DNA of 32,000 nucleotides from positions 47,710-79,709 of the forward strand of contig JAITBP010000005.1 of the NCBI GenBank assembly GCA_031283585.1, written 5' to 3'. The DNA comes from Puniceicoccales bacterium. Its GTDB lineage: Bacteria > Verrucomicrobiota > Verrucomicrobiia > Opitutales > LL51. A program made the translations under genes and the position numbers. Within the stretch, counting starts at the first letter, position 1. Every line of letters starts with the position of its first letter. The notes below the pieces were generated by a model that searched no databases, had not been told where the DNA came from, and saw only the letters and a program-made list of their open reading frames with translations. This document shows positions 2,528 to 19,542 of the stretch, piece by piece.

Positions 2528-3355
2528 ATGAGTGACGACCTCACAGTCCATTCTTCCAGTAATACCGATAGGATAAGTATAATAAACGACTATCTCGATG
2601 CGGTAAATCAGGAGACCAAGATAGAAAATCCAACGATTTCGACAGTCGGCGAGCTTAGCATTGGCACAGAATCACTTACGGATGCACCAATGGGTGTGAA
2701 CCTAGCCGGTCTTAGGGTAACAGACGATCCGCCAAGCATCAGCTCCGTGGGTCTGGTCCAGCACCAGGGAAATGAGCACAAAATAGATGTCAACGACGAT
2801 GACCATGATGGTGTCCCGAATTATATTGACGCAAAAGACACTGATAACCAACCAGCCGTAGATAGCGACAAGGATGGCATCCCGGATGACGTCGATGTAA
2901 CCGGAAGTGCATCCGATGTTAAACAATCCCATAGGAATGAAAGCGCTTCTGCAGAACGAGTTAGATCATCGTTAATGTCCGCTCTAATGACATTCTTGCA
3001 GTTCGATTTCAGTCTACTCCTTGGAGGAGCTGATCCCAGCGATAACGAAGCCCGCAAAATCGGTGCATTGGCCCAAACATCGCTTGGAATAACAACGACC
3101 AAAGAAGCCAAGGTCGCCGACATGGACAATTCGCGAAACGTACACCAGGAGATGCGTCAACATAAAATCAGGGCTAATCTAGGCAAGCGTCGAAACCTTG
3201 AAAATGAAGTGCTGACTGACACCAGGCCACTATCCGGCGTAACAAAAAATAAATTCAAGGAATTGGAAAAACCACTCATGGCATCGCAGAAAGATCTTGG
3301 CATTAAAAGTGCAGTAATCCAGGATCAACCTATCAAAAAACCTCCCATGATATAA
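2528..3355 (+). CDS. candidate type III secreted effector with two thrombospondin-type-3-like Ca-binding motifs
   Basis: Starts 1 nt after the chaperone stop. 275 aa with no signal peptide or TM segment and a Ser/Thr/Asn/Ile-rich N-terminus. Carries DDDHDGVPNYID and DSDKDGIPDDVD (DxDxDGxxDxxD pattern, nt 2795..2896). No other family recognised. Confidence 0.45.
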   Translation: MSDDLTVHSSSNTDRISIINDYLDAVNQETKIENPTISTVGELSIGTESLTDAPMGVNLAGLRVTDDPPSISSVGLVQHQGNEHKIDVNDDDHDGVPNYIDAKDTDNQPAVDSDKDGIPDDVDVTGSASDVKQSHRNESASAERVRSSLMSALMTFLQFDFSLLLGGADPSDNEARKIGALAQTSLGITTTKEAKVADMDNSRNVHQEMRQHKIRANLGKRRNLENEVLTDTRPLSGVTKNKFKELEKPLMASQKDLGIKSAVIQDQPIKKPPMI

Positions 3356-3416: not shown

Positions 3417-4562
3417 ATGGTGGGGGTTGCGATCGAAATGAATGCAGCCAGCCAGATGGTTTCTAATTACACAAATTATCTAGCCAAATTAGAAAAATCT
3501 GGCCTGTTGAGATCGCTCAAAGCACAGCACCAGGGTGGACTGGATTTTTCCAGCAATGACTATCTGGGACTGGCCAACTCCCCAGCCCTCTTAGAAGCCG
3601 GTTATGAAGCAGCAAGACTCTATGGCTCAGGAAGTACCGGATCGAGGCTTTTGTCCGGCAACAGTGATCTATTCGAAGATTTTGAAGCCCAAATAGCCAA
3701 AGACTATGGAACAGAAACGGCACTGCTATTCAATTCCGGCTTTGATGCCAACATCGGGATTATTCCAGCCATTTCGGACAAAACCAGCCTAATCATCTTC
3801 GACAAATTAAACCATGCGAGCCTATATCAGGGTGCCCTGCTTAGTGGAGCCAAGTTATTACGCTACAACCACTTAGATTACACGATGCTTGGCGAAATTT
3901 TGAAAAAAAATATAAATAACCACGGAACGATTATCATCGCATCGGAGACTGTGTTTGGCATGGACGGTGACAGGGCAAACCTGAAAATTTTGGCTGATCT
4001 ATCCAGCAACTATAACGCCATCTTATACCTAGATGAAGCCCATGCCATTGGACTGCAGGGCAAAAACGGCTATGGCCTATCAACGGACTTCGATCTGGAT
4101 AAAAACAGAACGATTATCCTGGGAACTCTCAGCAAAGCCCTGGGCTCAACCGGAGCCTATGTGGCTTGTAATTCTTTGATTAAAAACATGTTAATAAACA
4201 AATGTCAGAGCTTCATCTATTCGACAGCCCTGGCCCCATTTTGCATTGGAGCAGCGGCCCGGGCCTGGAAAATAGCCAAAACCATGACAAAAGAACGGAG
4301 GGCACTGATTGAAACATCTACCCGACTGAAAAATTATCTCAAGGACCTTGGATACAATGTGTTAGGAAACGGAACCAACATAATCCCAGTCCTATTCAAC
4401 GGCCCGAATGAAGTGATGAAAAAGAAAGAAGATCTATGCAAAAACGGCCTGCTGGTATCGGCCCTGCGAAGGCCGACCGTAGCCAAACCACGCCTGCGCA
4501 TCGCCGTCAATGCTAGGCATACCCAAAATGATATCACAAAACTACTAAGTGCCTTCTCATGA
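3417..4562 (+). CDS. bioF: 8-amino-7-oxononanoate synthase
   Basis: 381 aa class II aminotransferase-like protein: DFSSNDYLGL, the PLP-lysine motif GTLSKALGSTG, DEAHAIG, and a bio gene context. The start could instead be the ATG at 3438 or 3456. Confidence 0.88.
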   Translation: MVGVAIEMNAASQMVSNYTNYLAKLEKSGLLRSLKAQHQGGLDFSSNDYLGLANSPALLEAGYEAARLYGSGSTGSRLLSGNSDLFEDFEAQIAKDYGTETALLFNSGFDANIGIIPAISDKTSLIIFDKLNHASLYQGALLSGAKLLRYNHLDYTMLGEILKKNINNHGTIIIASETVFGMDGDRANLKILADLSSNYNAILYLDEAHAIGLQGKNGYGLSTDFDLDKNRTIILGTLSKALGSTGAYVACNSLIKNMLINKCQSFIYSTALAPFCIGAAARAWKIAKTMTKERRALIETSTRLKNYLKDLGYNVLGNGTNIIPVLFNGPNEVMKKKEDLCKNGLLVSALRRPTVAKPRLRIAVNARHTQNDITKLLSAFS

Positions 4563-6121: not shown

Positions 6122-7648
6122 TCAAGGTTTGGTTAGGATTTTTTTAAATCCAAGCAAGTAGAGTGACACCAAATAGGAACCAACTCCAACCGGAACACCG
6201 ACCAGGATGGATAAAACACCGTATAGTTTTTCTGAGCAAACCGCATTTTTTAACCAAGTACAGCAAAACACCACAACGGTTGACATAATTAGGCAGGAAA
6301 AAATCACCGTGGATAACGTGTCATACAGATTTTTGAGCCTAAACAAATGATCTATTCTAATAAGAAACAGATATAACAAAACCGTCTGCACAACCACAGA
6401 TAACAGGTTGGCCATGGCCACTCCCTTCACCCCATATGGTTTCATAAGTATCAACGTCGCAATAAAATTCACTATAAAACTAACCAAGGATATATATACC
6501 GGAATTTTCGTATTTTTCATGACATGGAAGCCTCGAACAAAAAATGTGGACAGTGCATAAAACACCATGGCAATCATGAACACATATACCACAGGTAGTG
6601 TATCAAGCATATCGTCCAGGCCAAAATTCCCATATTTAAACAGAACGATAAAAATCTCACTTCGTAGGACGATTATCCCTAGGGCAGCCGGTAGTACTAT
6701 AGCAATGATCATGTTCGCGCCACGCTGAAAAGCTGCAGATAATCTGGCCCTATCATTTTTTGATGCAAATTTTGACATGTTAGGAAACATCACCGTTGTA
6801 ATGGCCACAACAAACACGCCCAGGGGTAATTCCATCAACCGATTAGCCAAATATAGTATGGACATCGCGCTATTGGATAACCCAAAGGCTAACCATCTGG
6901 ACACAGCTATGTTTACCTGCATTATCGATGCCCCGACGAAGCCGGGTATAAATAATTGCTTAAGCCTATGAAATTGAGGGCTCGTGCCCAGGTCAAATTT
7001 TACACGCCAGCCAAGTTTATAAAGCTGGATCACCGGCAGCATTAGCTGGACCACTCCACCTGCAAGTACGCCGGCGCACAGCCAGTAAATCCTACTCACC
7101 AGTCCATATTGGCAGTAATAACCGGATATATAGAAAAATACAATCATGCTCACATTTAGCCAGATAGCATTCATCGATGAAAGAAAATACTGGCCAAGCA
7201 CATTCAGAACCGCAGAAAATATCGCAGCCAAACATACAAAAATCATATAGGGTAACAATAGCGCCGAAAAGTTAAGGCTATAACGCCACCTGTTGCCAAT
7301 CTGATCCAGGCCCAGGGCAAAAAAAACACCTATAATCAGCATACCCGACGCAACTATCCCTAGTAATATTAACGCTACCCTGGTAACAGTCTTATTCAAA
7401 AGAGAGAAAGCTGACTGTAAGCTGTTCTTGTGAAACTCATCCGAAAACACCGGAACCAATGCCGACGTCAATGCACCTTCACCGAATAGCCGTCTAAAAA
7501 GATTCGGCAGAGTAAATGCAAAAATAAACGCCGAGTTCTCTATGCCGGTACCAAGTGCAGTAAACGTCAATATATCTCTCCACAGTCCGAAAATTCTCGA
7601 ACTTAAGGTGATGATCGCCACAATAAATATATTGTTCAAAACGCCCAT
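6122..7648 (-). CDS. murJ: lipid II flippase MurJ/MviN
   Basis: 508 aa polytopic membrane protein. The N-terminus SRIFGLWRD ... FGEGALTSALVPVF matches the MurJ signature region. Confidence 0.9.
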   Translation of the reverse strand: MGVLNNIFIVAIITLSSRIFGLWRDILTFTALGTGIENSAFIFAFTLPNLFRRLFGEGALTSALVPVFSDEFHKNSLQSAFSLLNKTVTRVALILLGIVASGMLIIGVFFALGLDQIGNRWRYSLNFSALLLPYMIFVCLAAIFSAVLNVLGQYFLSSMNAIWLNVSMIVFFYISGYYCQYGLVSRIYWLCAGVLAGGVVQLMLPVIQLYKLGWRVKFDLGTSPQFHRLKQLFIPGFVGASIMQVNIAVSRWLAFGLSNSAMSILYLANRLMELPLGVFVVAITTVMFPNMSKFASKNDRARLSAAFQRGANMIIAIVLPAALGIIVLRSEIFIVLFKYGNFGLDDMLDTLPVVYVFMIAMVFYALSTFFVRGFHVMKNTKIPVYISLVSFIVNFIATLILMKPYGVKGVAMANLLSVVVQTVLLYLFLIRIDHLFRLKNLYDTLSTVIFSCLIMSTVVVFCCTWLKNAVCSEKLYGVLSILVGVPVGVGSYLVSLYLLGFKKILTKP

Positions 7649-7796
7649 TCACTATTATAGGCTCTGATTTTGCCAAAATTTACAAGAACATTTTTGTTCT
7701 GTAACATTTTGACATATTAAAAACTATAATACATCAGTAATAATTTATTGTAATTTGCGTAGGAATTTTATTTTCATTTTTCAAAACTTTTAACTC

Positions 7797-9398
7797 ATGA
7801 TTTCTTTCCTAGAACGTATTTTGCAAAAACATCACAAATGGCTATTTTCGATATTACTATTTATTATTATCGTCAGCTTTGTTTTCACCGTGGGTTCCTC
7901 ACCGGGCATAGGGAGAAGCAGGGTTAAGGCCATAAATTTCTTTGGCTATAACCTAAGTTCGCAGAAAGACATCAACTCTCTGCTGGAAGAAACAAGAATG
8001 AGTGCAACCCTCAACGGCCGATTTGATTTGTTATACTTCGGTGGTCTTCAGGATGAAGCACTTATGCGTGCCGTGAAAATAGACATGGCAAACAAAATGA
8101 AAATACCAATCCCGGACAAAAAGATTTTGGACGATTTTGTAGAAAAATACAAAATGTTTATCGATAAAGACGGTAAATTTAGCCCATCGGCCTACAACAC
8201 AATCATCGGTTCTCTGGTAAGGCGTGACCACGATGCCGAAACATTAAAACGCACGATGGAAAATGATTTTCGTTTGCAATTCATCGAAAATGCCATCGGT
8301 GGCTGTGGTTTTGCCCTGGAACAACAGGCAGAGGAACTGGTCAAACAGAACGAAACCAAATGGTCCTTTTATCTGGTGGAGCTGAATGCGGATGAGCCAT
8401 CGACAAATTTTTCTGAAGAAGAGCTAAAGGCGTTTTTTGATGAAAACCCAGGCCGCTACTATTTTCCAGAAAGATTCATAGCCACCTATGTTGAATTCGA
8501 AAAAGATGCGTTTCGCGAATCCATGACTCCGGCCACAAAAGACATCCTGAAAAAATTTTACAGCGACAAAAAAGCCCAATTTGATAAATTCAAGGACGAT
8601 AAGGAGGCTCTGAAAAAAGAAATAATCGACGAATACGAAAAATCCCAGTTGAAAAAACTAGCGATAAAAGCCGCCGGAGATTTTGTGTATGGTCTCTATA
8701 CAAATGGCATAGCCTACGACAGCGAAATGTTCCATAATATCTTAAAAGCCAATAGGATAACCGAAAAACCAATTCCCTGTTTTGACCTGGATAATCTTCC
8801 CACGGACCTGAATCTACCTTCCAAAGCTATAAAAAACCTAGTTGATCTTGACAAAATCAGGTACTTTTCGGATCCCTACGAAACAATCAATGGCAACGCC
8901 GCGGTGCTATTTTTAAAAGAAAAAATATATCCGGTCAAAATGTCATTCGACGAAGCTAGGTCATTGGTACAGGCCGATTACGTAAAAAAAGAAGCTTCGG
9001 CGGCATTTGACAGAAAATGCTCTGAAATACTTAAAGAGATAGAGTCTTCACTTAAAAAAGATGTAACATTCCAGGCCATCGCACTCGAAAAACAGCTAAA
9101 GATCCAGGATCATAAAGACAAAACGCTAAATGATCTCCAGCGAAGTGACTTACAACAGGTCTTGGATCATATATCCAAGGGAAATATCGGCAGACTGGTC
9201 AAGGATAAAAAGAGTGATGAACTATGCAATCTAATCTATATATATAATATGGATGTGCCAGAAGTTACCGATACAGAAAAGCTAACCAAAGCCATGGAAA
9301 ACCTAGAGTCCGAATCAGCCGATCTTTTTGCCCGATACTCGGTGATAGATATGGCCGAAGATGTGCTGACAAAATACAAAGAACTCAATGAAAAATAA
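7797..9398 (+). CDS. PpiD-like periplasmic chaperone, membrane anchored, no obvious parvulin domain
   Basis: N-terminal anchor KWLFSILLFIIIVSFVF. Blocks DGKFSPSAYNTII and EEELKAFFDENPGRYYFPERFIATYVEF parallel E. coli PpiD (DGKFDNSRYNAIL, EQEIASYYEQNKNNFMTPEQFRVSYIKL). 533 aa. Confidence 0.6.
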   Translation: MISFLERILQKHHKWLFSILLFIIIVSFVFTVGSSPGIGRSRVKAINFFGYNLSSQKDINSLLEETRMSATLNGRFDLLYFGGLQDEALMRAVKIDMANKMKIPIPDKKILDDFVEKYKMFIDKDGKFSPSAYNTIIGSLVRRDHDAETLKRTMENDFRLQFIENAIGGCGFALEQQAEELVKQNETKWSFYLVELNADEPSTNFSEEELKAFFDENPGRYYFPERFIATYVEFEKDAFRESMTPATKDILKKFYSDKKAQFDKFKDDKEALKKEIIDEYEKSQLKKLAIKAAGDFVYGLYTNGIAYDSEMFHNILKANRITEKPIPCFDLDNLPTDLNLPSKAIKNLVDLDKIRYFSDPYETINGNAAVLFLKEKIYPVKMSFDEARSLVQADYVKKEASAAFDRKCSEILKEIESSLKKDVTFQAIALEKQLKIQDHKDKTLNDLQRSDLQQVLDHISKGNIGRLVKDKKSDELCNLIYIYNMDVPEVTDTEKLTKAMENLESESADLFARYSVIDMAEDVLTKYKELNEK

Positions 9399-9463
9399 TG
9401 TCAAAAATCACGAAAACATCAGATATGTTATTATATGCTAATTTTGTTGACTTATAATATAAA

Positions 9464-10588
9464 ATGGTTGTTTACACTACATACTATAGTGAAAATGAAA
9501 TGAAAAACTATCTGATAATTGTTGGAGTTGCAGTTGCGTTATTGAGTGGATGTCAATCGACAGGCCCTGACTCTATTAAAGAAGCCCAGCCGGAATATAA
9601 CTATGCGCTGGCTGAAACTGCAAATGAACAGATGTTGCTTAACCTTGTTAGGTTAAAGTACCGCGATACGCCATATTTTCTAGAAGTTAGCGGCATAACC
9701 GAATCCAGGTCAGCAAAGGTTTCCATGGGACTTGGGAAAACCCAATGGAACGTCAATGCGCATAATTCTGGACCTACAGCAGTCATGGCTTTTCCACTTT
9801 TAGGAACCGAAGAAACCAGGACCCCAACCATAACCTATGCTCCCCTTCAGGGCGAAAAATTTGTTAAACATCTTGTGTCTCCAATCCCACTATCAATAAT
9901 ACTCACCATGGTTCAGGCTGGCTGGACCATAGACCGGGTATTCAACCTGTGTGTGGAACGGATCAATGATCTGGATAATGCATCAACCGCCTCGGGCCCA
10001 ACTCCAGAAACAAAGCCAGAATATGAAAGCTTCTTCCGCACCACGGAGTTATTGGCCAAGCTCGACCGCAGTGGCGAGATAGAAATAGGAACGAAAAACA
10101 ATGAATTGGTTCTTAAACTTTCATCGAGCCCCTATCTGGCATCGGAAAAATACGAACTAAAAAATCTCCTGGATTTGTCTCTGGACACTGACGAATTCAC
10201 TTTCGGAAACAATTTTATAGACAGCTCGGATAATACCCTGACCATACGTACACGTTCGATCATGGAAGTGCTTTTTTATCTATCCCATGCCGTCACGGTC
10301 TCCCAAAATGATATCAATGCCGGTCTGGTCACATTGACCTATGATGACACCGGAGATATTTTTGATTGGACAAACAATCTATCTGGAGAACTGCTCAAGG
10401 TTCATTCTTCGGAGGAAAAACCTCAGGGAGCGTTTGTATCGATAAAATACAGAGGTTCATGGTTTTACATAAACGACAACGATTTAAATTCCAAAACGAC
10501 TTTTATGTTATTGAATCACCTATTCAATCTTCAGTCAGGAGAATCTAAATCCATAGCTCCAACATTAACCCTGGCCGTTGGTAGTTAA
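9464..10588 (+). CDS. lipoprotein of unknown function
   Basis: The internal Met at 9500 gives MKNYLIIVGVAVALLSGCQS, a positively charged n-region followed by an LSGC lipobox. The rest is not recognised. The likely true start is 9500. Confidence 0.7.
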   Translation: MVVYTTYYSENEMKNYLIIVGVAVALLSGCQSTGPDSIKEAQPEYNYALAETANEQMLLNLVRLKYRDTPYFLEVSGITESRSAKVSMGLGKTQWNVNAHNSGPTAVMAFPLLGTEETRTPTITYAPLQGEKFVKHLVSPIPLSIILTMVQAGWTIDRVFNLCVERINDLDNASTASGPTPETKPEYESFFRTTELLAKLDRSGEIEIGTKNNELVLKLSSSPYLASEKYELKNLLDLSLDTDEFTFGNNFIDSSDNTLTIRTRSIMEVLFYLSHAVTVSQNDINAGLVTLTYDDTGDIFDWTNNLSGELLKVHSSEEKPQGAFVSIKYRGSWFYINDNDLNSKTTFMLLNHLFNLQSGESKSIAPTLTLAVGS

Positions 10589-10612
10589 TATTTAAAAAAT
10601 ATATCAAAATAC

Positions 10613-10641
10613 AGGCATCGACATTCGGTGCCTTGTTTTTT
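10613..10641 (+). terminator. rho-independent terminator downstream of the lipoprotein gene
   Basis: aggcatcg-acatt-cggtgcct forms an 8-bp stem (one G-U pair) and is followed by tgtttttt. Confidence 0.6.
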
Positions 10642-10656
10642 AGATAGTGCTTTAGA

Positions 10657-10740
10657 TGGTGCTCAAGAGGGGACTCGAACCCCTACACCTTGCGGCACAT
10701 GCACCTCAAACATGCGTGTCTACCATTCCACCACCTGAGC
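10657..10740 (-). tRNA. tRNA-Leu (anticodon GAG)
   Basis: 84-nt class II tRNA on the minus strand: acceptor GCTCAGG/CTTGAGC, anticodon stem CATGT/GCATG with loop TTGAGGT, long variable arm, T-arm AGGGG-TTCGAGT-CCCCT, encoded CCA. Confidence 0.88.
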
Positions 10741-10832
10741 TGAAATCTGCGACAAGCGAAATACATTCAATCATGTTAGCAATAAAAATATTGTAGTTGC
10801 CATAGTTTTGGAATTAATTTTATCAACTTGTT

Positions 10833-13550
10833 TTGTTGGAAAGGAGACATCGGCCCATGGACAGAATTGAAAGACCGAATAGCGCAGATGACATAGCTGA
10901 AATAACCGAAATAGCTGAAATAGCTGAAAAATCAGAAAGCAAGGATACTCCGTTGGGTTCCAATCTCAAGTTTGGAGTAAAATGGAGCGATCCCGAAATT
11001 AAAAATTCCAGCCAAAAGTATCGGCAATATCCGCAAAGATCACCCAGGCGTAACCAGGGCAACTTTCGGGCTGATAATCACAGGAAATATCAGCAGCACA
11101 ACAGGTTCAGGCCCGTAAGGCGTCCCTTTGAGCCCATCGTCGACGTCGCCTTTTACCAGAACGATGAACCATTTAAAGCCATGGTCGCGATGATGCAGAC
11201 CTCCTGCAAAACCTATAAGTTGTTCAACGTGGCTCGGTTGATGCTTGAAAAACCAGAAAATTTCGTCGTCACAATAAAAAAGAAACCAAACGCAAACGGA
11301 GAGCTGGAGCCACTGTATCTATCTCTGCCCGATGGTGTTCCTTTCGAAACCGAACAAGATGTTGTTCTCCACATAGCTAGACATCATATGGACAAATTTT
11401 TTGACATAACCGAAATCGATGTGGAGAAGCCAAAAGGTAATTTCACCAGTGTCCACAGATGTGGCATTACCGGGAAGCTGCTGGCTCCACCTAACTACCA
11501 CAAATACAGGGCGATAGTCAAAGAACACTATGAGTCCGAGATAAAATTCATGTCTTTTGGTAAATTTATGTCAAAAATAGAGATCGTCCATGACGAAGCG
11601 GAGATCCAGAAATGGCTTGAGCAAATGTCTAGGCGCCTAATATACAAGCCCAAAATGCCAGAAAATACCGACGATTTGCCAAAAATTGAATCGATATCCG
11701 AGGCTAAGCAGTATCTTTTGGAGAATTTTAAAGACAAAGCGATAAAGGAATCGATAATGCTAAGGATACCAGGAACGGTACTAGTGACCATGCAGCGCTG
11801 CCTGCTCAAAAAATCGATAGACTATGCCTGGCTATGGCAAAAAAGGATCCCGCTCGATACCGCTAACCGGCTCCGTGGCAAATTCAGAAGCTTTCATTTT
11901 TCCGTATATAAAAATGGGAAAAGTGGCATATCCTACGTCTGCGCCGCTCGTAGAAAATTTGTGCCAAGCAACTCCGTTTTTACCAATGAAATCCGCCAAC
12001 TGATAGAATTTTTAGAAAAAAATAATGGTATAAAAATATCCGAACTGGAACAGAAGATTCGCAACCCGACCAGCGGGATTAGTGCCCCCATCGAAGAAAT
12101 TGCAAAAAATCTAAATTGGTTGATCCATGAAGGCTATGTAATTGAATATGAAGATGGTAAGCTGGAAACTTTGCCAAAGATGGAAGAGCCAAGAGAAAAA
12201 TCGGAAAAGTCGGAAAAACCGGAAAAGTCAGAAAAGTCTGTTCAGAATAGCAATCAATTGGCTCTAATTAACCCATCGGACACCACAACTTTATCATTAC
12301 GCGTTGATGAAGAAATAGTTATAGAACCATACAACAGAGAAACTGCAATTGTCGTGGACAAGGAAACCACCATGGTCGCAACCGGCAGTAGTCCATCCAT
12401 GGATGGCAACAACCTCCAGGAACAAGCCAATCATAATAGAAATGTATTTAGGGCAAAACTCATTGAGCGCAAAAGACTTAGCGGACCAAACACAGAAAAA
12501 GTTGGCTATCACCTGGTATTCGAAAATTCCGGCGGCCACAGTTATAAAAGCGGCGATGCCCTGGCTGTGATGCCAAAAAATCCAGAAAAAGATGTGGTGA
12601 GTATATTAAACAGGCTTGGATTAAATTACGATGAAATTGTAAAAATTGGAGAATCCGGACTAACTATCGGTAAAGCACTTACAGAAAAATTATGTCTGAC
12701 ACATCTGCCAAAACGCTTCTGGGAAAGCCTTGCAAAAAAAATCAAAGATGAAAAAGAATTGGAAGAATATTTCGATATAACCAGCGGTGATGGCCAAAAA
12801 TTTGAGACTTTCTTGAAGACCAATGGCCTGGCCGATATACTACAAAAATTCGAAAGTATCACATTGTCAGCCAAGGACTTAGCCGATACATTAGGAAGGA
12901 TGCCGCCCAGACTGTACTCCATATCGTCTGCCTATAGCGCCACACCGGACAAAATCCACCTACTGGTCGCGGCTGTTAAGTATGTGGTAGAGAACAACAA
13001 AGAGCGCCGTGGTGTGGCTTCAACCTATCTGTGCAATGAGCTACAGGTTGGAGAACAGGCCGAGGTGTTTATAGTGAATTCAAAATTTTCCCTACCGGAA
13101 AACTCCGCTGACATTATCATGGTAGGACCCGGCACCGGCCTCGCACCTTTCATGTCATTTCTTCTGGAAAGGGCTACCCGCCGGGCCAAAGGTAACGCCA
13201 TCGGGCGCAATTGGTTGTTTTTCGGAGAACAACATCGAACGGAAAATTTTTATTACAAAGATGAACTGCTTTCTCTGGTCGATCAGGGAGACCTGTGGCG
13301 TCTTGATTTGGCATTCTCCAGAGACCAAGAGCATAAGATCTATGTCCAAGATAAGATGTTAGAAAACGCTAACCTGATACTCGACTGGATCACCAACGGT
13401 GCCTATTTTTACCTATGCGGAGACGCTTCGAAGATGGCAAAAGATGTTGAGGCCACTCTAAAAACAATACTTAGCAAACATACCAACGATCCTGATGGAT
13501 TCGTCAAACAGATGTACAAAGATAAACGCTATCAACGTGATGTCTACTGA
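10833..13550 (+). CDS. fusion protein: unknown ~500-aa N-terminal region + CysJ/diflavin-reductase-type FAD and NADPH binding module (no FMN domain)
   Basis: The C-terminal ~380 aa carry RLYSISS (FAD), GPGTGLAPF (NADPH), YLCGDASKMAKDV and the CysJ-like C-terminus RYQRDVY. No flavodoxin motif is seen upstream. The N-terminal part is unrecognised and contains a basic Q/R-rich stretch. An alternative start is the Met at 10857. Confidence 0.75.
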   Translation: MLERRHRPMDRIERPNSADDIAEITEIAEIAEKSESKDTPLGSNLKFGVKWSDPEIKNSSQKYRQYPQRSPRRNQGNFRADNHRKYQQHNRFRPVRRPFEPIVDVAFYQNDEPFKAMVAMMQTSCKTYKLFNVARLMLEKPENFVVTIKKKPNANGELEPLYLSLPDGVPFETEQDVVLHIARHHMDKFFDITEIDVEKPKGNFTSVHRCGITGKLLAPPNYHKYRAIVKEHYESEIKFMSFGKFMSKIEIVHDEAEIQKWLEQMSRRLIYKPKMPENTDDLPKIESISEAKQYLLENFKDKAIKESIMLRIPGTVLVTMQRCLLKKSIDYAWLWQKRIPLDTANRLRGKFRSFHFSVYKNGKSGISYVCAARRKFVPSNSVFTNEIRQLIEFLEKNNGIKISELEQKIRNPTSGISAPIEEIAKNLNWLIHEGYVIEYEDGKLETLPKMEEPREKSEKSEKPEKSEKSVQNSNQLALINPSDTTTLSLRVDEEIVIEPYNRETAIVVDKETTMVATGSSPSMDGNNLQEQANHNRNVFRAKLIERKRLSGPNTEKVGYHLVFENSGGHSYKSGDALAVMPKNPEKDVVSILNRLGLNYDEIVKIGESGLTIGKALTEKLCLTHLPKRFWESLAKKIKDEKELEEYFDITSGDGQKFETFLKTNGLADILQKFESITLSAKDLADTLGRMPPRLYSISSAYSATPDKIHLLVAAVKYVVENNKERRGVASTYLCNELQVGEQAEVFIVNSKFSLPENSADIIMVGPGTGLAPFMSFLLERATRRAKGNAIGRNWLFFGEQHRTENFYYKDELLSLVDQGDLWRLDLAFSRDQEHKIYVQDKMLENANLILDWITNGAYFYLCGDASKMAKDVEATLKTILSKHTNDPDGFVKQMYKDKRYQRDVY
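10893..10928 (+). repeat. in-frame 9-bp tandem repeat x4 (IAE/ITE)
   Basis: atagctgaa ataaccgaa atagctgaa atagctgaa, encoding IAEITEIAEIAE near the N-terminus of the 905-aa ORF. Confidence 0.9.
12196..12240 (+). repeat. in-frame 9-bp tandem repeat x5 (EKS/EKP linker)
   Basis: gaaaaatcg gaaaagtcg gaaaaaccg gaaaagtca gaaaagtct, encoding EKSEKSEKPEKSEKS. It sits between the unknown region and the reductase module. Confidence 0.9.
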
Positions 13551-13551
13551 C

Positions 13552-14790
13552 CTAGGCTGAAAATTTTTTAGCTATAACAACGGAATTTACACCCATCATT
13601 CCAAAGGAATTGTTCAAAATCACATCCGGGTTATCTAGCTTTATTGCCTTGTTGCACACCAGATTATCGATTCGACAGCTGGGATCTATGTCATCGATAT
13701 TGATCGTCGCATGGACATAATGATCATCAAAAGATGGCAAATTCCCAGCCAGCTCCAAGGCTCCAGCAGCTCCCATGGCATGACCTATAAGACTTTTAGT
13801 ATTATTGAAATACGTATTGCCAACGGTAAACACCTCCCGTAGCGCAACGCACTCAGATATATCTCCCTGGGCTGTCGACGTGGCATGGGTGCTAACTATA
13901 CTCACGTCACCGGGCTGCATATTGGCCATTTTTAAAGCAAGACGAATGCATTCCGCCTGCCTGGTCGAATTCGGCTTGACAGCATCCGTGGCATCGGAGT
14001 TTATCGCATAGCCAACTATCTCGGCATAGATCTTCGCGCCACGTGACAGAGCATCCCTCAGCCGTTCAACAACATATAGGCATCCACCTTCGCTCACCAC
14101 AATCCCGTTTCTTGCCTTGTCAAACGGTCGGCTAACCCGGTTCGGATCCTGGTTATAACCCAGCGCACCTTGACTCTTAAATCCAGCAAATATGCCAAAA
14201 GACCTTATGCTTTCGCTGACACCACCGGCGATGGCAATGTCAACTTCGCCAAGCCGTAACATTTGAAGTGCCTGGATTAACCCTGCATTACCAGCCGCAC
14301 AGGCAGCGCCGATGGTATAATGAGGCCCGGTTATCCCCAGATTTATGGTAATCTCACCGGCCGGATTGTTGGCTATGGTCCGTGGGTTATGATAGTGTCC
14401 CCAGTATTTTACATCATAGTTAAACCGGGACAAATTATATATCTCGTTCTCTGTCTCAACGTTACCGTGCTCTGTTATGCCCACGTAGACGCCAATTCGT
14501 GCTCTGTCCATCGTCGCAAAATCAATACCGCTGTCGCTAATCGCCTCGTTGGCACAATAAACGCCAATGCTGCCGGCGCGGGTACCATTCCTAATGTCCT
14601 TCTTGCTTTGATAGCGAGTGGCTTCAAAATCACATACACCGGCCGGAACAACCCCAATATACCGAATATCGAGCATTTCGATATTTGACTTTCCGGCTAG
14701 CAAGTTACTCCTGAACTCCTTCAGAGAGTTGCCGTTAGGTGCAGTCAATCCCACACCGGTTATGACTATTCTTTCATCAGCTGTGTACAT
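13552..14790 (-). CDS. beta-ketoacyl-ACP synthase I/II family, divergent FabF-like
   Basis: 412 aa with the catalytic Cys context IGAACAAGN, His motifs STHATSTAQGD and IGHAMGAAG, and the C-terminal NSFGMMGVNS. No adjacent ACP or other fab genes. Confidence 0.85.
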   Translation of the reverse strand: MYTADERIVITGVGLTAPNGNSLKEFRSNLLAGKSNIEMLDIRYIGVVPAGVCDFEATRYQSKKDIRNGTRAGSIGVYCANEAISDSGIDFATMDRARIGVYVGITEHGNVETENEIYNLSRFNYDVKYWGHYHNPRTIANNPAGEITINLGITGPHYTIGAACAAGNAGLIQALQMLRLGEVDIAIAGGVSESIRSFGIFAGFKSQGALGYNQDPNRVSRPFDKARNGIVVSEGGCLYVVERLRDALSRGAKIYAEIVGYAINSDATDAVKPNSTRQAECIRLALKMANMQPGDVSIVSTHATSTAQGDISECVALREVFTVGNTYFNNTKSLIGHAMGAAGALELAGNLPSFDDHYVHATINIDDIDPSCRIDNLVCNKAIKLDNPDVILNNSFGMMGVNSVVIAKKFSA

Positions 14791-14849
14791 CCTCGATCAC
14801 CTTAGATAAAATTAAATTCCAGGAAAGTAAAAAATAACCCAAGTTATAT

Positions 14850-14880
14850 CAATTAATTATCCGAAGCACCCAATTAATTA
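14850..14880. promoter_or_regulatory. pair of direct caattaatta repeats in a divergent promoter region
   Basis: caattaatta at 14850..14859 and again at 14871..14880 (21 bp centre to centre). Each contains the palindrome aattaatt. Lies between the KAS gene and the pilM-like operon. Confidence 0.3.
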
Positions 14881-14927
14881 AATACTTTGCACTGTTACAA
14901 ATTAATGTAGAATAACAACCTAGGATA

Positions 14928-16559
14928 TTGTGGATGAAGCGGCTAAATAAAGTTATACTCCATTACAGCAATGACATGGTAACGATTTGCGATGTCTCCT
15001 TTAAAGAAGAAAATTACCTTATAAATGTGCTAGGAACAATGGAATTAACCAGAGACAAAACCATTGATACCATCCTAGAGTCCCTACCGCAGAAAATAAG
15101 AAAAAGCGTCGGCCAGATCATACTGGCGGATTCGATCCTAAAATATGTGCCGCTTCGAACATACAATACGAGAGAAGACAGGCTTAAAAAAGCAATCGAG
15201 TTCGAATTTGCCAACATTTTTAAAGAAAAAGCAGACCAATTGGCCTACTATATAGATCCGACTCCAACCAATGACAAAAATATCGCAAACTGTTTTGTAG
15301 CAGAACCCTGTGTGTTAGGCTCTCTGCACCTTGCTTTGAAAAAAGCCCAAATGTCTCCAAAAATACTGCTGCCGGACCCGGTGCTGCGCATCCGCGGCTT
15401 CAATAGGTACAACAGGCCAATACTGTTCATTCATTTAGTAAAAAACGCTCTATTCCTGCATCTAGGCGAGGAAAACAAACATCAAACCAAGGTGATTCCA
15501 CTTGGGCTGGATTCCCTGGCGAAAAAAATCAAACGGGACCATCAGGTCCACCTGTCAACGGATGAACTGGAATCGGTATTATTTTCAAGGCCAATATCGA
15601 TAGCATCTGATAAAAATGCGCCGATTATAGAGCAAATTACCGACGAGATATCTACATATTTAATGGAAGAATTGAGAAATTTTATATCAGAATTTTTTGA
15701 CAATAAAAGAACAATCTATTCAGGGCCAATTGTTCTTAGCGGACTGACCGACGATTTCGTTTGCATGCCAAGGTTGGCCGATGTAATACCCCAGGAAAAT
15801 ATCAAAGATATAAACAATGTTATAAAAATTCACCTAAAGCTAAACAATGATTCAGAACAAGTTATCGCCGGGATCATTCCAGCCCTTATCGGTGCCATTA
15901 ACCTATCCAATGAAAAAGACAATGTCTTAAATTTATCAAAAAATATCAATGAATCAGAATATGCCGATGGTATTCTACCGTCCTATCTCAAAAATTTGAT
16001 CCTGATCATGGTTCTATTGACCTCGGCAAACCTATTTGCCTACTCGGCCATTCTGAGAAAAAATATAGTTCTGCGCCATATAAATTCCAATCTTATAAGC
16101 GATAAAGCCGATCTATCGAAGCTTGCAAGTAGCATTGCGGCTGCCAAAAAAACCGTCGAAGCCAGGCAAAAAATTACAAATACAGCAAATTTTGCCAAAA
16201 ATCACCAGGATCTGTTGATAGAATTTTTCCGAAATCTACAGGCTTCGGTGGCAGAGATTAATGACCTCTGGCTGGATGAGTTAGCGATTGATCCATCTGA
16301 ACAGAAAAATGCTGGTGAAAAACTTCCTACCCAGCCTTCGATAAAAATAATCGGCAGAATGTTTGTAAAAAACATGTCAAATTTACCAGAATTCACATCA
16401 CTGACCAATGAACGATTTAACAAATTATTCGAAAAAATGAAAAAACTACCTGGTGTAACCAATGTGTCTAAAATAAAAATACAGCCTCCGGAAAACAACA
16501 CCATACTATTTCGGTGCGAGCTATTTTTAAAAAACAATTCCCAGATTTTCAGCCCATGA
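14928..16559 (+). CDS. PilM-like actin-fold domain fused to a PilN-like transmembrane/coiled-coil segment
   Basis: 543 aa. The N-terminal ~340 aa have PilM-like features (KKAIEFEFANIF resembles the PilM EAVRWEAEQYIPF block). There is a single TM at about aa 354-376 (LKNLILIMVLLTSANLFAYSAIL) preceded by VLNLS (compare the PilN INLLP motif), then a ~165-aa periplasmic tail. Confidence 0.5.
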   Translation: MWMKRLNKVILHYSNDMVTICDVSFKEENYLINVLGTMELTRDKTIDTILESLPQKIRKSVGQIILADSILKYVPLRTYNTREDRLKKAIEFEFANIFKEKADQLAYYIDPTPTNDKNIANCFVAEPCVLGSLHLALKKAQMSPKILLPDPVLRIRGFNRYNRPILFIHLVKNALFLHLGEENKHQTKVIPLGLDSLAKKIKRDHQVHLSTDELESVLFSRPISIASDKNAPIIEQITDEISTYLMEELRNFISEFFDNKRTIYSGPIVLSGLTDDFVCMPRLADVIPQENIKDINNVIKIHLKLNNDSEQVIAGIIPALIGAINLSNEKDNVLNLSKNINESEYADGILPSYLKNLILIMVLLTSANLFAYSAILRKNIVLRHINSNLISDKADLSKLASSIAAAKKTVEARQKITNTANFAKNHQDLLIEFFRNLQASVAEINDLWLDELAIDPSEQKNAGEKLPTQPSIKIIGRMFVKNMSNLPEFTSLTNERFNKLFEKMKKLPGVTNVSKIKIQPPENNTILFRCELFLKNNSQIFSP

Positions 16560-17479
16560 ATTTTACACTTACAAAAAAACGTGCTACCTATCTGTCCGCA
16601 ATAATTTTTTTGATTATTCTATTTCTGGCATTGCCAACGCTGCTGCTTGCCACGATAAAAAAAATGACAGAAAACAAAAATTTAGACGAAGCCAACAGAA
16701 AACTCCGGCTAGAAGTCTCTCATCTCCAATCAACTAAGCCGCAACCAACCGAAGCCACGCTGACTTCCCTGAGACGCAGGGCCAGCGCCTATGAGCTTAG
16801 ATCAAACATCTACCTGGAGGAATATAGAAAATATTCACTGGCGATAACGGACAGTTCCGCACCAAAAAACGAAGTCGATCTATATTTTTCACTGATGTCA
16901 CTGGTTAAGTCACTGCATACAAAAGCAATCAAGGCCAGAATCAGTGTTCCGAAAGACTACTACTTTGCCTTTGAACCCTATGTAAAAAAAGATCTGATAC
17001 CGCGGCCAGAAGAAATTCATCTGCTTTATAGCCAAAGCCTAGCCATACTGAAACTATTATCCGTGCTGTTCAAATCCAATGAAAATGAAATGGCACTGAT
17101 TTCCGTGGAAAGAGAATCTATTTCCTTGGACAAGAACAAACTAGACGCACCGGATACATTTTCATCGGCAAAATTCAATAGCTTCCGAACCAAAGGAGCG
17201 GAATCCTCTCTGTTCACAATAACATTCGCCGGTTACACCAGATGTTTTCGCAATTTTCTGAACGGCATAGCCCAAAAATCCCTGCCTGTACTTTTCAAAG
17301 AAATAAAAATTTCGCCACTGGATTCGAAGACGAAACCAGATAATAAGCCCCAGGCTAAAAAGGAAGAAAAGACGATAGTTGTTGAATCGAGGAAATCAAA
17401 AATCAAAGTGACGGTGGAGTGGTTATTCATGAACAATAATGAAGAACTCCTTCGGTCAGAACAAGTAATAAACGAATGA
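16556..17479 (+). CDS. membrane-anchored coiled-coil protein, PilO-like / Amuc_1100-like architecture
   Basis: The track ORF begins at 16514, but the ATG at 16556 forms an ATGA overlap with the upstream stop and gives MNFTLTKKRATYLSAIIFLIILFLALPTLLLATI (a TM anchor). This is followed by a coiled-coil region and a C-terminal domain (FTITFAGYTRCFRNFLNGIAQ...KIKVTVEWLF). Confidence 0.4.
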   Translation: MNFTLTKKRATYLSAIIFLIILFLALPTLLLATIKKMTENKNLDEANRKLRLEVSHLQSTKPQPTEATLTSLRRRASAYELRSNIYLEEYRKYSLAITDSSAPKNEVDLYFSLMSLVKSLHTKAIKARISVPKDYYFAFEPYVKKDLIPRPEEIHLLYSQSLAILKLLSVLFKSNENEMALISVERESISLDKNKLDAPDTFSSAKFNSFRTKGAESSLFTITFAGYTRCFRNFLNGIAQKSLPVLFKEIKISPLDSKTKPDNKPQAKKEEKTIVVESRKSKIKVTVEWLFMNNNEELLRSEQVINE

Positions 17480-18354
17480 TGTCTCTAAATATGTTAGGAT
17501 TAGCAAGCTGTGTCCTATTTTTTCTAGGCACAGCCTATGAGTTTTTTTGCATGAAAACCGCCAAAAATGAACCACTAAAACCGCCGGATCAACCACTTAA
17601 TCAAAAAATAGACCTGGCTTATCAGGACGATCTGCTCAGGTACGATTTCAATGAGTTTTCCTGGCCAGATCCAACCCCATCGGACCGGGGCGAATTCTGG
17701 CTATTTGATCTATTTACACCACCGCAAATTTCTGTCAGCAATGGGGTATTTTCGGCCTCATTGCCACAATTACACAGCGAAAATCTCGATTTAACTGTCA
17801 CATCAATTTCAAGACAACAATATAAGATACAATTTTTCGGTTATTTTCAAAAGCCAGCCGGCTTCGGCGATAACAATAAATTTACATTAATACTATACGA
17901 TATAACAAAAGACCAAAGCTTCCGATGCGAAGTTGGGGATGAACTGACTGATAAAAACATTTCCATAATCGGCTTCAAGGAAAAATTCTCCTCCGCTGAT
18001 CCGCTATTGAAAAATAAACCGATGGTGACAATTTACGACAAAGACCTTGCTAAAAACATTGAGCTATCCAGTCATACAAAATTCTACGATGATAGATACA
18101 CAATAGTAATAAAGTCTGGCACTTCTGCTAAGTCGTACACCATTAACAAGATAAATGACTCCATTAGCCTGGATGGCATCAGCTATTCCCTGACCGAAGT
18201 CAACATGGATGCCGGATATATAAAATTAACCCAGACCGGTGGCGATGGCCATGAATCAGCCAAGATAATCAGGGTTATCGGCTTAGCTGACAATACATTA
18301 CAGAATGAACCCAGACAAAAACAACCGATCATCGATGGACCAGACAGGAAGTAA
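17476..18354 (+). CDS. N-terminally anchored protein of unknown function (third gene of the pilM-like operon)
   Basis: ATGA overlap with the upstream stop. N-terminal hydrophobic segment LGLASCVLFFLGTAYEFF, then a beta-rich-looking region (FWLFDLFTPPQISV...). No family recognised. Confidence 0.4.
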   Translation: MMSLNMLGLASCVLFFLGTAYEFFCMKTAKNEPLKPPDQPLNQKIDLAYQDDLLRYDFNEFSWPDPTPSDRGEFWLFDLFTPPQISVSNGVFSASLPQLHSENLDLTVTSISRQQYKIQFFGYFQKPAGFGDNNKFTLILYDITKDQSFRCEVGDELTDKNISIIGFKEKFSSADPLLKNKPMVTIYDKDLAKNIELSSHTKFYDDRYTIVIKSGTSAKSYTINKINDSISLDGISYSLTEVNMDAGYIKLTQTGGDGHESAKIIRVIGLADNTLQNEPRQKQPIIDGPDRK

Positions 18355-18408: not shown

Positions 18409-19542
18409 ATGAAGCTAGCTGGGCTGACAAATACGCAATTGCTAATGATACTGAGTTCATTGCCAACCATCGGCAGCATCACCTTCTTCAAGCTATATAA
18501 TAATTTCAAAAAAAATCTTCACCAAATATTCTCGGCAACCAAAGAAGAACTCATGGAGATCGGACTTGTATCCGAAGCCATTGCTAATAAAATACTAAAC
18601 TGGGAGAAATTTTTCGACCTAGGTAAAACTGAAACAAAATTGGCCAAAATTCGAGGGGATTTTATTGGCTATTGTGACAATGAAAATTATCCAAAATCAC
18701 TAAAAAATATCCACGATCCACCCATTGGGCTGTATTCCATCGGCAACGGATCTTTGCTAAACTCCCGATGTATAGCTATCGTAGGTACAAGAAAACCAAC
18801 GCTTTACGGCATTAAGGTAGCCACAGAATTTGCGATAAACCTGGCAAATCTGGGGTTTTGTATAGTCAGTGGCCTGGCCCAGGGAATAGACAGTTCGGCC
18901 CACGAAGGAGCCATCGCAGCCGGTGGCAAAACCATCGCTGTTCTCGGTTGTGGCATCGACATCATTTACCCATCCGAAAATCGCCGCCTATACAAAAAAA
19001 TCGCTGAACAGGGTTGTATTATTTCGGAATTTCCTCTGGAAAAAAGGGCTGACAAGCAAACTTTTCCCATACGAAATAGGCTTATTTCAGGGCTTTGCGA
19101 CAACGTCATCATCATTGAAACCGCAAAACATGGCGGCAGCATGATAACGGCAAACATCGCCTGCGAACAGGGAAAAAACGTATTTGTTATACCTGGCAGA
19201 ATAGATCAAACCTCCAGCGAAGGCTGCCACGAATTGATCAGAAATGGAGCAACCCTTGTGACCTCGGTGGATGATATATTGGAGGAAATAAATTTTCCAA
19301 TGCAACAGGCTCTCGTTTTTGATGATCAAAAGGAGGAACCAAAAATCTCCGATCCTGTTGAAAGACAAGTCCTTAATTTTCTAAAATCCTGTGACAATGC
19401 TACCATAGATGACATAATGATCAATAGCCAGCTGACTCTCGGGCCGATTCTAAAATCCATACAACTGCTTGAAATAAAACAACTCATAACAAAAAATTTC
19501 GATGGATCATTCCAGGCAAATTTTATGCACATGCACAAGTAG
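18409..19542 (+). CDS. dprA: DNA processing protein DprA (Smf)
   Basis: Rossmann-like core GTRKPTLYG ... GLAQGIDSSAHEGAI ... IAVLGCGIDIIYPSEN ... FPIRNRLISGL ... GGSMITANIACEQGKNVFVIPG, plus a C-terminal winged-helix-like tail. Confidence 0.9.
   Translation: MKLAGLTNTQLLMILSSLPTIGSITFFKLYNNFKKNLHQIFSATKEELMEIGLVSEAIANKILNWEKFFDLGKTETKLAKIRGDFIGYCDNENYPKSLKNIHDPPIGLYSIGNGSLLNSRCIAIVGTRKPTLYGIKVATEFAINLANLGFCIVSGLAQGIDSSAHEGAIAAGGKTIAVLGCGIDIIYPSENRRLYKKIAEQGCIISEFPLEKRADKQTFPIRNRLISGLCDNVIIIETAKHGGSMITANIACEQGKNVFVIPGRIDQTSSEGCHELIRNGATLVTSVDDILEEINFPMQQALVFDDQKEEPKISDPVERQVLNFLKSCDNATIDDIMINSQLTLGPILKSIQLLEIKQLITKNFDGSFQANFMHMHK

Follow-up and report, generated by a model that had tools for sequence, protein, structure and literature searches.

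The window analyzed here is a stretch of 32,000 nucleotides from a Puniceicoccales bacterium (contig JAITBP010000005.1, positions 47,710 to 79,709). It contains three consecutive genes on the plus strand, referred to below as gene 1, gene 2, and gene 3, and together as the triad. The triad is a very diverged, secretin-uncoupled variant of the Amuc_1098–1102 (MUL2) cluster of Akkermansia, not a new kind of system. It probably forms the alignment or assembly subcomplex in the inner membrane for a type IV filament machine of the MUL2 type, with partners encoded elsewhere. Taken by themselves, the homology and gene-order parts of this proposal are very likely correct. The homology, the PilM-like fold of gene 1, the predicted topology, the gene order, and its conservation were established directly. 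One of the three Akkermansia counterparts, Amuc_1100, is among the most studied probiotic effector proteins, and its native role is unclear.

In Akkermansia, the gene order is Amuc_1101-1100-1099-1098, and Amuc_1098 is the PilQ secretin (PMC5332112, PMC10688800, PMC13174399). Amuc_1101 is the PilM-type protein MUL2B, and Amuc_1102 is the pilin-like protein MUL2A; mucin acquisition depends on the Amuc_1098–1102 cluster (PMC10688800, PMC13174399, bioRxiv 10.64898/2025.12.30.696933). The cluster has been described as type IV pilus-like in PMC13174399, which does not mention Puniceicoccales. Across systems, PilM plus PilN are equivalent to GspL, PilO to GspM, and PilP to GspC-HR (PMC4471445).

The three proteins of the triad

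The structure of the gene 1 protein was modeled using AlphaFold 2 with a 15-sequence family alignment. The mean predicted local distance difference test score (pLDDT) of the model was 81. When the model was compared with the PDB by Foldseek, PilM topped the list (5eoy, E 6.5e-14, probability 1.00). The PilM matches came from P. aeruginosa, Thermus, and Myxococcus (5eoy, 2ych, and 3jc8_Ma), with E values from 6.5e-14 to 1.6e-12. Next came FtsA (about 1e-11) and then EpsL/GspL cytoplasmic domains (about 1e-8). The predicted N-terminal domain of gene 1 is of the PilM/FtsA type, with an actin-like fold.

Relatives of gene 1 were few. A word-indexed search of 5.8 billion proteins returned two, and HMMER found only 18 at E ≤ 0.001 among 1.84 billion representative proteins. 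Eleven of the 15 aligned family members matched the NCBIfam model NF045709 (Amuc_1101_fam) at E ≤ 1; gene 1 was not among them, and the best score was 260 bits against a cutoff of 650. P0025, a distant relative of 557 residues, was the sole member that passed the cutoff of Pfam PilM_2 (43.5 bits, cutoff 27). It also matched the NCBIfam entry "Amuc_1101 family PilM-like pilus complex protein" (E 4e-77) and TIGR01175 pilM (E 5e-10). Because the Amuc_1101 model spans 608 positions, a long protein made of PilM plus an extension is the norm in that family. Against PDB sequences, the best match of the gene 1 family profile was GspL (4pht), with a marginal E value of 0.079, and one family member matched Pfam T2SSL (E 0.0025).

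In the model, the transmembrane (TM) segment and a coiled-coil-type stalk form one continuous helix (residues 350–440). The periplasmic part was the best-conserved stretch of the family alignment. The predicted topology and order of secondary structure of this C-terminal half fit the duplicated alpha-beta-beta arrangement of PilN, PilO, periplasmic GspL, and GspM, a comparison that draws on PMC4471445 and on general knowledge. The half had no match to PilN in Pfam. The sequence VLNLS ends 15 residues before the only TM segment of gene 1. In P0025, the linker before the TM helix reads SINLIPKHF; this is an INLLP motif of the PilN type, with basic residues and then the helix after it. VLNLS and SINLIPK are in the same linker, a few alignment columns apart; MAFFT did not put them into shared columns, and a small manual shift was needed to match them. 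The VLNLS linker was modeled with low confidence (pLDDT 46–71). VLNLS may be a degenerate version of the SINLIPK-type motif, and it would dock onto the PilM-like domain. In the first beta-hairpin, the family alignment reads VILHYSNDMVTI where P0025 reads NCGSTH.

As modeled, gene 1 is a single-chain PilM–PilN fusion with a GspL-like architecture. The fusion has a well-known precedent, because PilM plus PilN is regarded as the GspL orthologue (PMC4471445). An earlier note on this DNA had suggested a PilM domain fused to a PilN-like TM/coiled-coil segment, with VLNLS just before the TM helix at the position of the INLLP motif. The model, the Foldseek matches, and the linker of P0025 agreed with it. 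The same note had contrasted the fusion with classical type IV pilus systems, in which PilM and PilN are separate proteins. The architecture is not novel, given that the locus is a diverged form of the described Amuc_1098–1102/MUL2 cluster and that GspL is a precedent for the single chain. The outcome is an explicit PilM–PilN (GspL-like) reading of the Amuc_1101 family.

Gene 2 encodes a protein with an N-terminal TM anchor (residues ~12–35) and a periplasmic domain. It matched NCBIfam NF038287 (Amuc_1100_fam) over 231 residues (19–249), with E 2.2e-11 and 43.8 bits, below the equivalog cutoff of 180. An identical NCBI entry, from a GenBank metagenome-assembled genome labelled Puniceicoccales bacterium, is named "Amuc_1100 family pilus-like protein" and has PF28028 on record. 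The series to which this genome belongs probably stems from termite guts. Precomputed Pfam PF28028 (Amuc_1100) assignments were present on all eight gene 2 homologs found. The gene 2 family also aligned with the Amuc_1100-like gene of L016, an environmental locus ending in a secretin gene (hhalign, E 1.1e-12). These matches suggested that gene 2 is a remote Amuc_1100-family member, and the family resemblance raised in the earlier note stood as a distant one. Direct searches of the three proteins against Pfam, NCBIfam, and PDB sequences returned only this sub-threshold match; the PilM, PilN, PilO, and PilP models gave none.

According to a preprint, Amuc_1100 is similar in structure to PilO and PilN (bioRxiv 10.64898/2025.12.30.696933). 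By analogy, gene 2 would occupy the PilO/GspM slot, with a PilO-like fold taken over from that preprint. Two gene 2 family profiles (A3 and A8) had no match among PDB sequences, and gene 2 had no PilO or GspM match in Pfam or NCBIfam. PilN/PilO paralogy was sought by comparing the gene 2 family with the gene 1 family and its C-terminal region in hhalign, and no signal was obtained. Placing the Amuc_1100 family in the PilO/GspM slot makes for a concrete hypothesis on how the MUL2 machine is built.

The gene 3 protein has a TM anchor (residues 4–24), a disordered linker, a conserved motif, and an all-beta region of about 170 residues (100–270). Its AlphaFold 2 model had a pLDDT of 72 overall and 77–93 in the beta region. 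In hhalign, the gene 3 family matched the family of the gene that precedes the secretin gene (L016–L019; a 309-aa protein in L016) with a probability of 99.8 and E 1.7e-30, and the homology was full-length. No Pfam, NCBIfam, or PDB sequence match was found, even with a 13-member family profile (A6), and a protein identical to gene 3, from the genome that holds the identical gene 2 entry, is annotated as hypothetical. Foldseek gave nothing in the PDB at E ≤ 0.001 (best E 9e-3). A lipoprotein reading of gene 3, based on the sequence LASC, was ruled out, as the Cys residue was not conserved in orthologs. Gene 3 is placed as the putative PilP/GspC equivalent by position and topology only. The analysis defines a gene 3/Amuc_1099-position family that is widely conserved and carries a sharp motif, with no known fold match.

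A hydropathy scan predicted a single TM segment in each of the three proteins. The three open reading frames (ORFs) and both of their junctions were confirmed at the positions given in the earlier note, with ATGA stop/start overlaps at 16556–16559 (genes 1 and 2) and 17476–17479 (genes 2 and 3). Gene 1 most plausibly starts at the ATG at 14934. The spacing of an AGGA sequence 9 nt upstream agrees with this start, and P0001, a database protein 99% identical to gene 1, begins at the same ATG; an in-frame TTG is present at 14928. An ATGA overlap was also found in an unrelated gene pair at 4559–4562 of the window, and it is nothing special in this compact genome. Among seven tabulated orthologous loci from synteny contexts A and B (described below), the ATGA between genes 1 and 2 was kept in all seven. 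The junction between genes 2 and 3 was ATGA in four, an 8-nt overlap in two, and a 1-nt overlap in one. More distant relatives had gaps of 0–32 nt, with Shine-Dalgarno-like sequences in L019 and L016. It is the conservation of the overlaps, not ATGA as such, that carries information. A promoter scan gave 16 sites against 12.9 expected, and the site upstream of gene 1 alone was not significant.

Table 1. Features of the triad and associated genes (positions are those of the window)
Feature	Length or residues	Position	Strand	Description or basis
Gene 1	541 aa	14934–16559	+	PilM–PilN fusion (modeled), Amuc_1101/MUL2B type, GspL-like architecture
Actin-like PilM/FtsA-type domain, cytoplasmic (predicted)	1–~325	14934–15908	+	AlphaFold 2 model, Foldseek
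VLNLS, putative degenerate PilN-type INLLP-like linker motif	331–335	15924–15938	+	
Single TM helix of gene 1	~351–373	15984–16052	+	Hydropathy scan
Periplasmic part of gene 1	Long helix to 440, then beta-beta-alpha-beta-beta 445–532	16053–16529	+	DSSP of the model
Gene 2	307 aa	16556–17479	+	Probable distant Amuc_1100-family protein, putative PilO/GspM slot
Gene 3	292 aa	17476–18354	+	Membrane-anchored, all-beta; Amuc_1099/PilP/GspC position
Gene 3 motif, W-x2-P-x5-G-x2-W-x-FDLFTPP-x-I	63–85	17662–17730	+	Family alignments
dprA		18409–19542	+	TIGR00732, E 1.6e-75
Promoter-like site, TTTGCA-16-TAGAAT		14886–14913	+	Upstream of gene 1; weak evidence
Solitary PilB/GspE-type assembly ATPase	385 aa	26898–28055	+	Pfam T2SSE, E 1e-125

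Gene order in relatives and the secretin

The triad occurred alone, without a secretin gene, in about a dozen distinct Puniceicoccales-type loci that fell into three synteny contexts. In context A, it was located between a fabF-like gene and dprA (the window, L001, and L007/L010). In context B, it was located between nusA-infB-rbfA and a thymidine phosphorylase gene (L003–L006, L008, L012, L013, L015, and L020–L022). L019 represented the third context. A tblastn search with the Verrucomicrobial secretin of the L016 locus as query gave no match in the window, nor in any of the Puniceicoccales-type loci.

The secretin gene was present in more distant relatives. L016 and L017 had the order 206-aa signal-peptide protein, PilM_2 fusion (P0025), Amuc_1100-like protein, 309-aa protein, and secretin. 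When metagenomes were scanned with the gene 3 motif as seed, eight more distant environmental loci were obtained. The order gene 1, gene 2, gene 3, secretin was observed in eight of the eight environmental loci whose contig extends past gene 3 (L016, L023–L027, L029, and L030; L017 duplicates L016 and was not counted). In those other than L016, the secretin was 38–51% identical to that of L016 and was encoded about 0.3–1.2 kb past the gene 3 homolog. Homologs of gene 1 and gene 2 were upstream wherever the contig reached. The conserved four-gene unit of PilM–PilN fusion, Amuc_1100-like protein, third protein, and secretin extends well outside Akkermansia.

The secretin-ended four-gene unit is presumably the ancestral arrangement. 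The state seen in the window is derived and shared by the whole clade: the triad is separated from the secretin gene and from the upstream gene. Because all closer relatives also lack the secretin gene, this is a clade-level state, not a rearrangement in one genome. The earlier note had reasoned that a standard order in close relatives would reduce the locus to a local rearrangement. Distant relatives did have the secretin-ended order, whereas all closer ones had the triad only, and the secretin-less order was kept in related genomes. The loci thus divide cleanly into secretin-linked and secretin-unlinked ones, and the secretin-uncoupled variant is a natural experiment.

It is hardly credible that the triad is a decaying, functionless remnant of a lost pilus system. 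The extreme divergence and the loss of neighbouring cluster genes would fit such a remnant. However, in about a dozen loci and three synteny contexts, the ORFs were intact, lengths and motifs were conserved, and the junctions were tight. As the ORFs stayed intact with tight junctions at 15–55% identity, the triad appears to be under purifying selection.

A gene for a signal-peptide protein of about 206–222 aa is located directly upstream of the PilM-fusion gene in L016 (9356–9976) and L027 (2923–3591). The two proteins are 33% identical, and their position is that of Amuc_1102/MUL2A. The L016 protein of 206 aa was compared with the PDB, where homology to Amuc_1102 (7DSZ) was sought, and no match was found; its equivalence to MUL2A is for this reason positional only. 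In the window, gene 1 is only 143 bp from fabF upstream, and no signal-peptide protein gene is located between them.

Other features of the related loci were recorded. Downstream of the triad, L019 has a run of at least seven further genes on the same strand (7104–15164, plus strand; 522, 125, 336, 862, 318, 198, and >434 aa). The run had no family match except for one gene with weak, sub-threshold TPR-type matches, and it contained no secretin gene. It may be an accessory operon. Its 522-aa and 862-aa proteins were considered as secretins and rejected, since they had no similarity to secretin. In context B, L020 (7724–7897) and L021 (1938–2108) have a small ORF of 56–57 aa that separates rbfA from the gene 1 homolog. 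L003/L004, from a related Puniceicoccales metagenome-assembled genome, encode a 561-aa protein with many eukaryote-type Myb DNA-binding repeats (13711–15396, minus strand), next to grpE-dnaJ.

Partners, mechanism, and alternative functions

A solitary gene 8.5 kb from the triad encodes a PilB/GspE-type assembly ATPase. It is flanked by rseP and a Na:alanine symporter gene, and it has the same place in L001. Among NCBIfam models, GspE matched with E 1.9e-150 (aligned at 103–483 of 486), and PilB was aligned at 174–561 of 564. The E values were 2e-74 for ComGA and only 2e-49 for the PilT family. The ATPase scored slightly higher on GspE than on PilB, and far better on assembly ATPases than on PilT. 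It is a candidate motor for the machine of the triad. Because this ATPase is encoded alone, away from the triad, the genes of the filament machine are dispersed in this genome, so the absence of partners at the triad locus is weaker evidence. Of the pilins, prepilin peptidase, PilC/GspF platform, and ATPase of a whole filament machine, only the ATPase was seen in the 32 kb. The earlier note had overlooked it. Its list of absences was accurate: the 32 kb has no secretin, platform protein, prepilin peptidase, or pilin-like ORF, and dprA comes after the triad.

We propose the following mechanism for this fast-evolving, uncultured Puniceicoccales lineage. The actin-like cytoplasmic domain of gene 1 would dock the motor and the platform protein. 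Its TM helix, coiled coil, and duplicated alpha-beta-beta domain would pair with their counterparts in gene 2. Gene 3 would bind the gene 1/gene 2 pair through its W..P..G..W.FDLFTPP.I segment, and its beta domains would project toward the outer membrane in the PilP/GspC position. The ATGA overlaps would couple the translation of the three subunits. In this clade, the genes for the secretin and the upstream signal-peptide protein would have left the locus. The triad would then work with partners encoded elsewhere, as the lone ATPase already is. The cellular function could be attachment or substrate capture, as has been proposed for MUL2, or secretion, or DNA uptake.

A number of results weigh against this proposal. 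Gene 1 itself had no Pfam or NCBIfam match at E ≤ 10, and PilM_2, T2SSL, TIGR01175, and NF045709 were not reached. In the family alignment, the DxG phosphate-1 motif of the actin fold appears unrecognisable in gene 1. The gene 2 family was compared by hhalign with an Amuc_1100 sequence identical to PDB 6KNY, and the result was not significant (E 0.39, and 0.019 with a larger alignment). The PilO-like fold of gene 2 is putative only. PilP/GspC-HR was absent among the 50 Foldseek matches listed for gene 3. The window ATPase has no N-terminal N1/MshEN-type domain, its GspE alignment starting at position 103, and N1 is the domain by which GspE binds GspL. A Pfam scan of window ORFs of at least 150 aa found no secretin, T2SSF (PilC/GspF), or prepilin peptidase, and no window ORF had a class III (prepilin) signal motif. 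Secretin, PilC/GspF, prepilin peptidase, and pilin were not seen in the flanks of related loci either.

A rival explanation is that the triad has been repurposed. In that case, the PilM–PilN fusion, the PilO-like protein, and gene 3 would form an inner-membrane and periplasmic scaffold with no secretin or pilus, similar to the flagellar cage of H. pylori. There are precedents for it. Type IV pilus proteins have been co-opted by flagella, and PilM/PilN/PilO homologs cage the flagellar motor of H. pylori (PMC10823254). PilMNO are also present in Gram-positive bacteria without secretins (PMC4471445). None of the three synteny contexts of the clade keeps the linkage to the secretin gene, yet the triad is still intact and tightly coupled in them, gene 1 has diverged too far to match the PilM or Amuc_1101 profiles, and no pilin, PilC, or peptidase gene is nearby. 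On the other hand, the window still encodes a PilB/GspE ATPase of the assembly type, and gene 3 remains homologous over its full length to the gene that comes before the secretin in secretin-linked loci. Genes missing from the locus may still be present in the genome, and the flanks offered no evident alternative partner. We consider repurposing unlikely, though it deserves some weight.

A broader idea is that this clade of host-associated bacteria dropped both secretin and pilin and yet keeps the coupled complex of PilM–PilN fusion, Amuc_1100-like protein, and gene 3 under selection for a secretin-independent envelope function. The Amuc_1100 family would then be primarily an inner-membrane, PilO-like scaffold and not a surface pilus protein. 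We regard this idea as doubtful. A set of partners encoded elsewhere is more likely than a secretin-independent role, and complete genomes from the clade bear on this choice. If they have no secretin, the three-protein core must function autonomously; if they have one elsewhere, the core is a selectable, co-translated unit of the system.

The neighbouring dprA suggested another function, in which the triad would belong to a competence machine for DNA uptake and be co-expressed with this gene. The gap between gene 3 and dprA is 54 nt, with no plus-strand terminator-like site in it, and dprA also follows in L001. The window ATPase is short and without N-terminal domains, as is ComGA, and PilMNO are required for transformation in Thermus thermophilus (PMC6325625). 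However, dprA was downstream of the triad in context A only (the window and L001), and context B, with the triad between rbfA and thymidine phosphorylase, was the more widespread. In addition, dprA is near-universal in bacteria (PMC5399837), and no comEC or comEA was nearby. dprA is possibly co-transcribed with the triad, and it is not a conserved partner. A role in competence is very unlikely.

Several other ORFs of the window were noted, all on the plus strand. A gene at 2050–2526 encodes a CesT/SicP-type type III secretion chaperone (Pfam CesT, E 7e-15), and 1 nt after it a 275-aa ORF without a family match follows (2528–3355). The two resemble a chaperone and its effector, a pair that one would not expect in a Verrucomicrobial metagenome-assembled genome. 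The 374-aa ORF at 9464–10588, downstream of a SurA-like gene, had no Pfam or NCBIfam match, and its position was kept in L001 (385 aa) and L007 (378 aa). The 905-aa protein encoded at 10833–13550 has a C-terminal FAD_binding_1/NAD_binding_1 reductase module. Its N-terminal part of about 530 aa had no family match and contains EKSEKSEKPEKSEKS-type repeats; the gene has the same place in L001 and L007.

Comparison with known systems

Compared with the type IVa subcomplex PilM-PilN-PilO-PilP(-PilQ), the triad shares the actin-like PilM fold and, in gene 1, the predicted bitopic coiled coil with a duplicated alpha-beta-beta domain. Two further bitopic periplasmic proteins, a tightly coupled operon, and the position of a putative INLLP-like motif are also common to both. 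It differs in that PilM and PilN are one polypeptide, and no PilN, PilO, or PilP match was found in Pfam or NCBIfam. Gene 3 is TM-anchored whereas PilP is a lipoprotein, the gene 3 model has no PilP among the 50 Foldseek matches listed, and no pilQ is present at the locus.

The triad could also belong to a type II secretion system, as its GspL-GspM-GspC set, and not to a surface pilus; such systems use a pseudopilus to export folded proteins. GspL is a natural single chain of PilM plus PilN (PMC4471445), and gene 1 has this architecture and Foldseek matches to EpsL/GspL. The best PDB sequence match of its family profile and the T2SSL match of one member point the same way, as does the slightly better score of the window ATPase on GspE. 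Gene 3, with its N-terminal TM anchor and periplasmic beta domain, is like GspC in being anchored and unlike the lipoprotein PilP. However, the fold search ranked PilM above GspL, and gene 1 has a cytoplasmic domain of PilM size (~325 aa). The window ATPase has no N1 domain for GspL binding. Gene 3 had no match to the HR domain, a beta-sandwich that binds the secretin N0 domain, among the Foldseek matches listed, the gsp order C-L-M is not followed in the window, and there is no gspC-O operon context. Moreover, the homologous Akkermansia cluster is type IV pilus-like, with the pilin-like MUL2A (PMC13174399). We therefore consider a type II identity quite unlikely.

The PilM/PilN/PilO homologs of the H. 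pylori flagellar cage resemble the triad in being PilMNO-type proteins encoded away from pilin and secretin genes. The triad of the window is not linked to flagellar genes, and the cage is a precedent for repurposing only (PMC10823254).

The Akkermansia Amuc_1098–1102/MUL2 cluster differs from the window in having the secretin gene and, at the MUL2A position, the upstream signal-peptide protein gene. The window belongs to Puniceicoccales, the scores of its proteins fall well short of the equivalog cutoffs (43.8 bits for gene 2, where the cutoff is 180, and no match for gene 1), and gene 2 did not align significantly with the Amuc_1100 crystal sequence. The similarities are in composition and order. 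In both, a long PilM-like protein, an Amuc_1100-family protein, and an uncharacterised anchored protein are encoded in the same order. Gene 2 matches the Amuc_1100 models, most relatives of gene 1 match the Amuc_1101 model, and the distant relatives of the window triad, like the Akkermansia cluster, end in a secretin gene.

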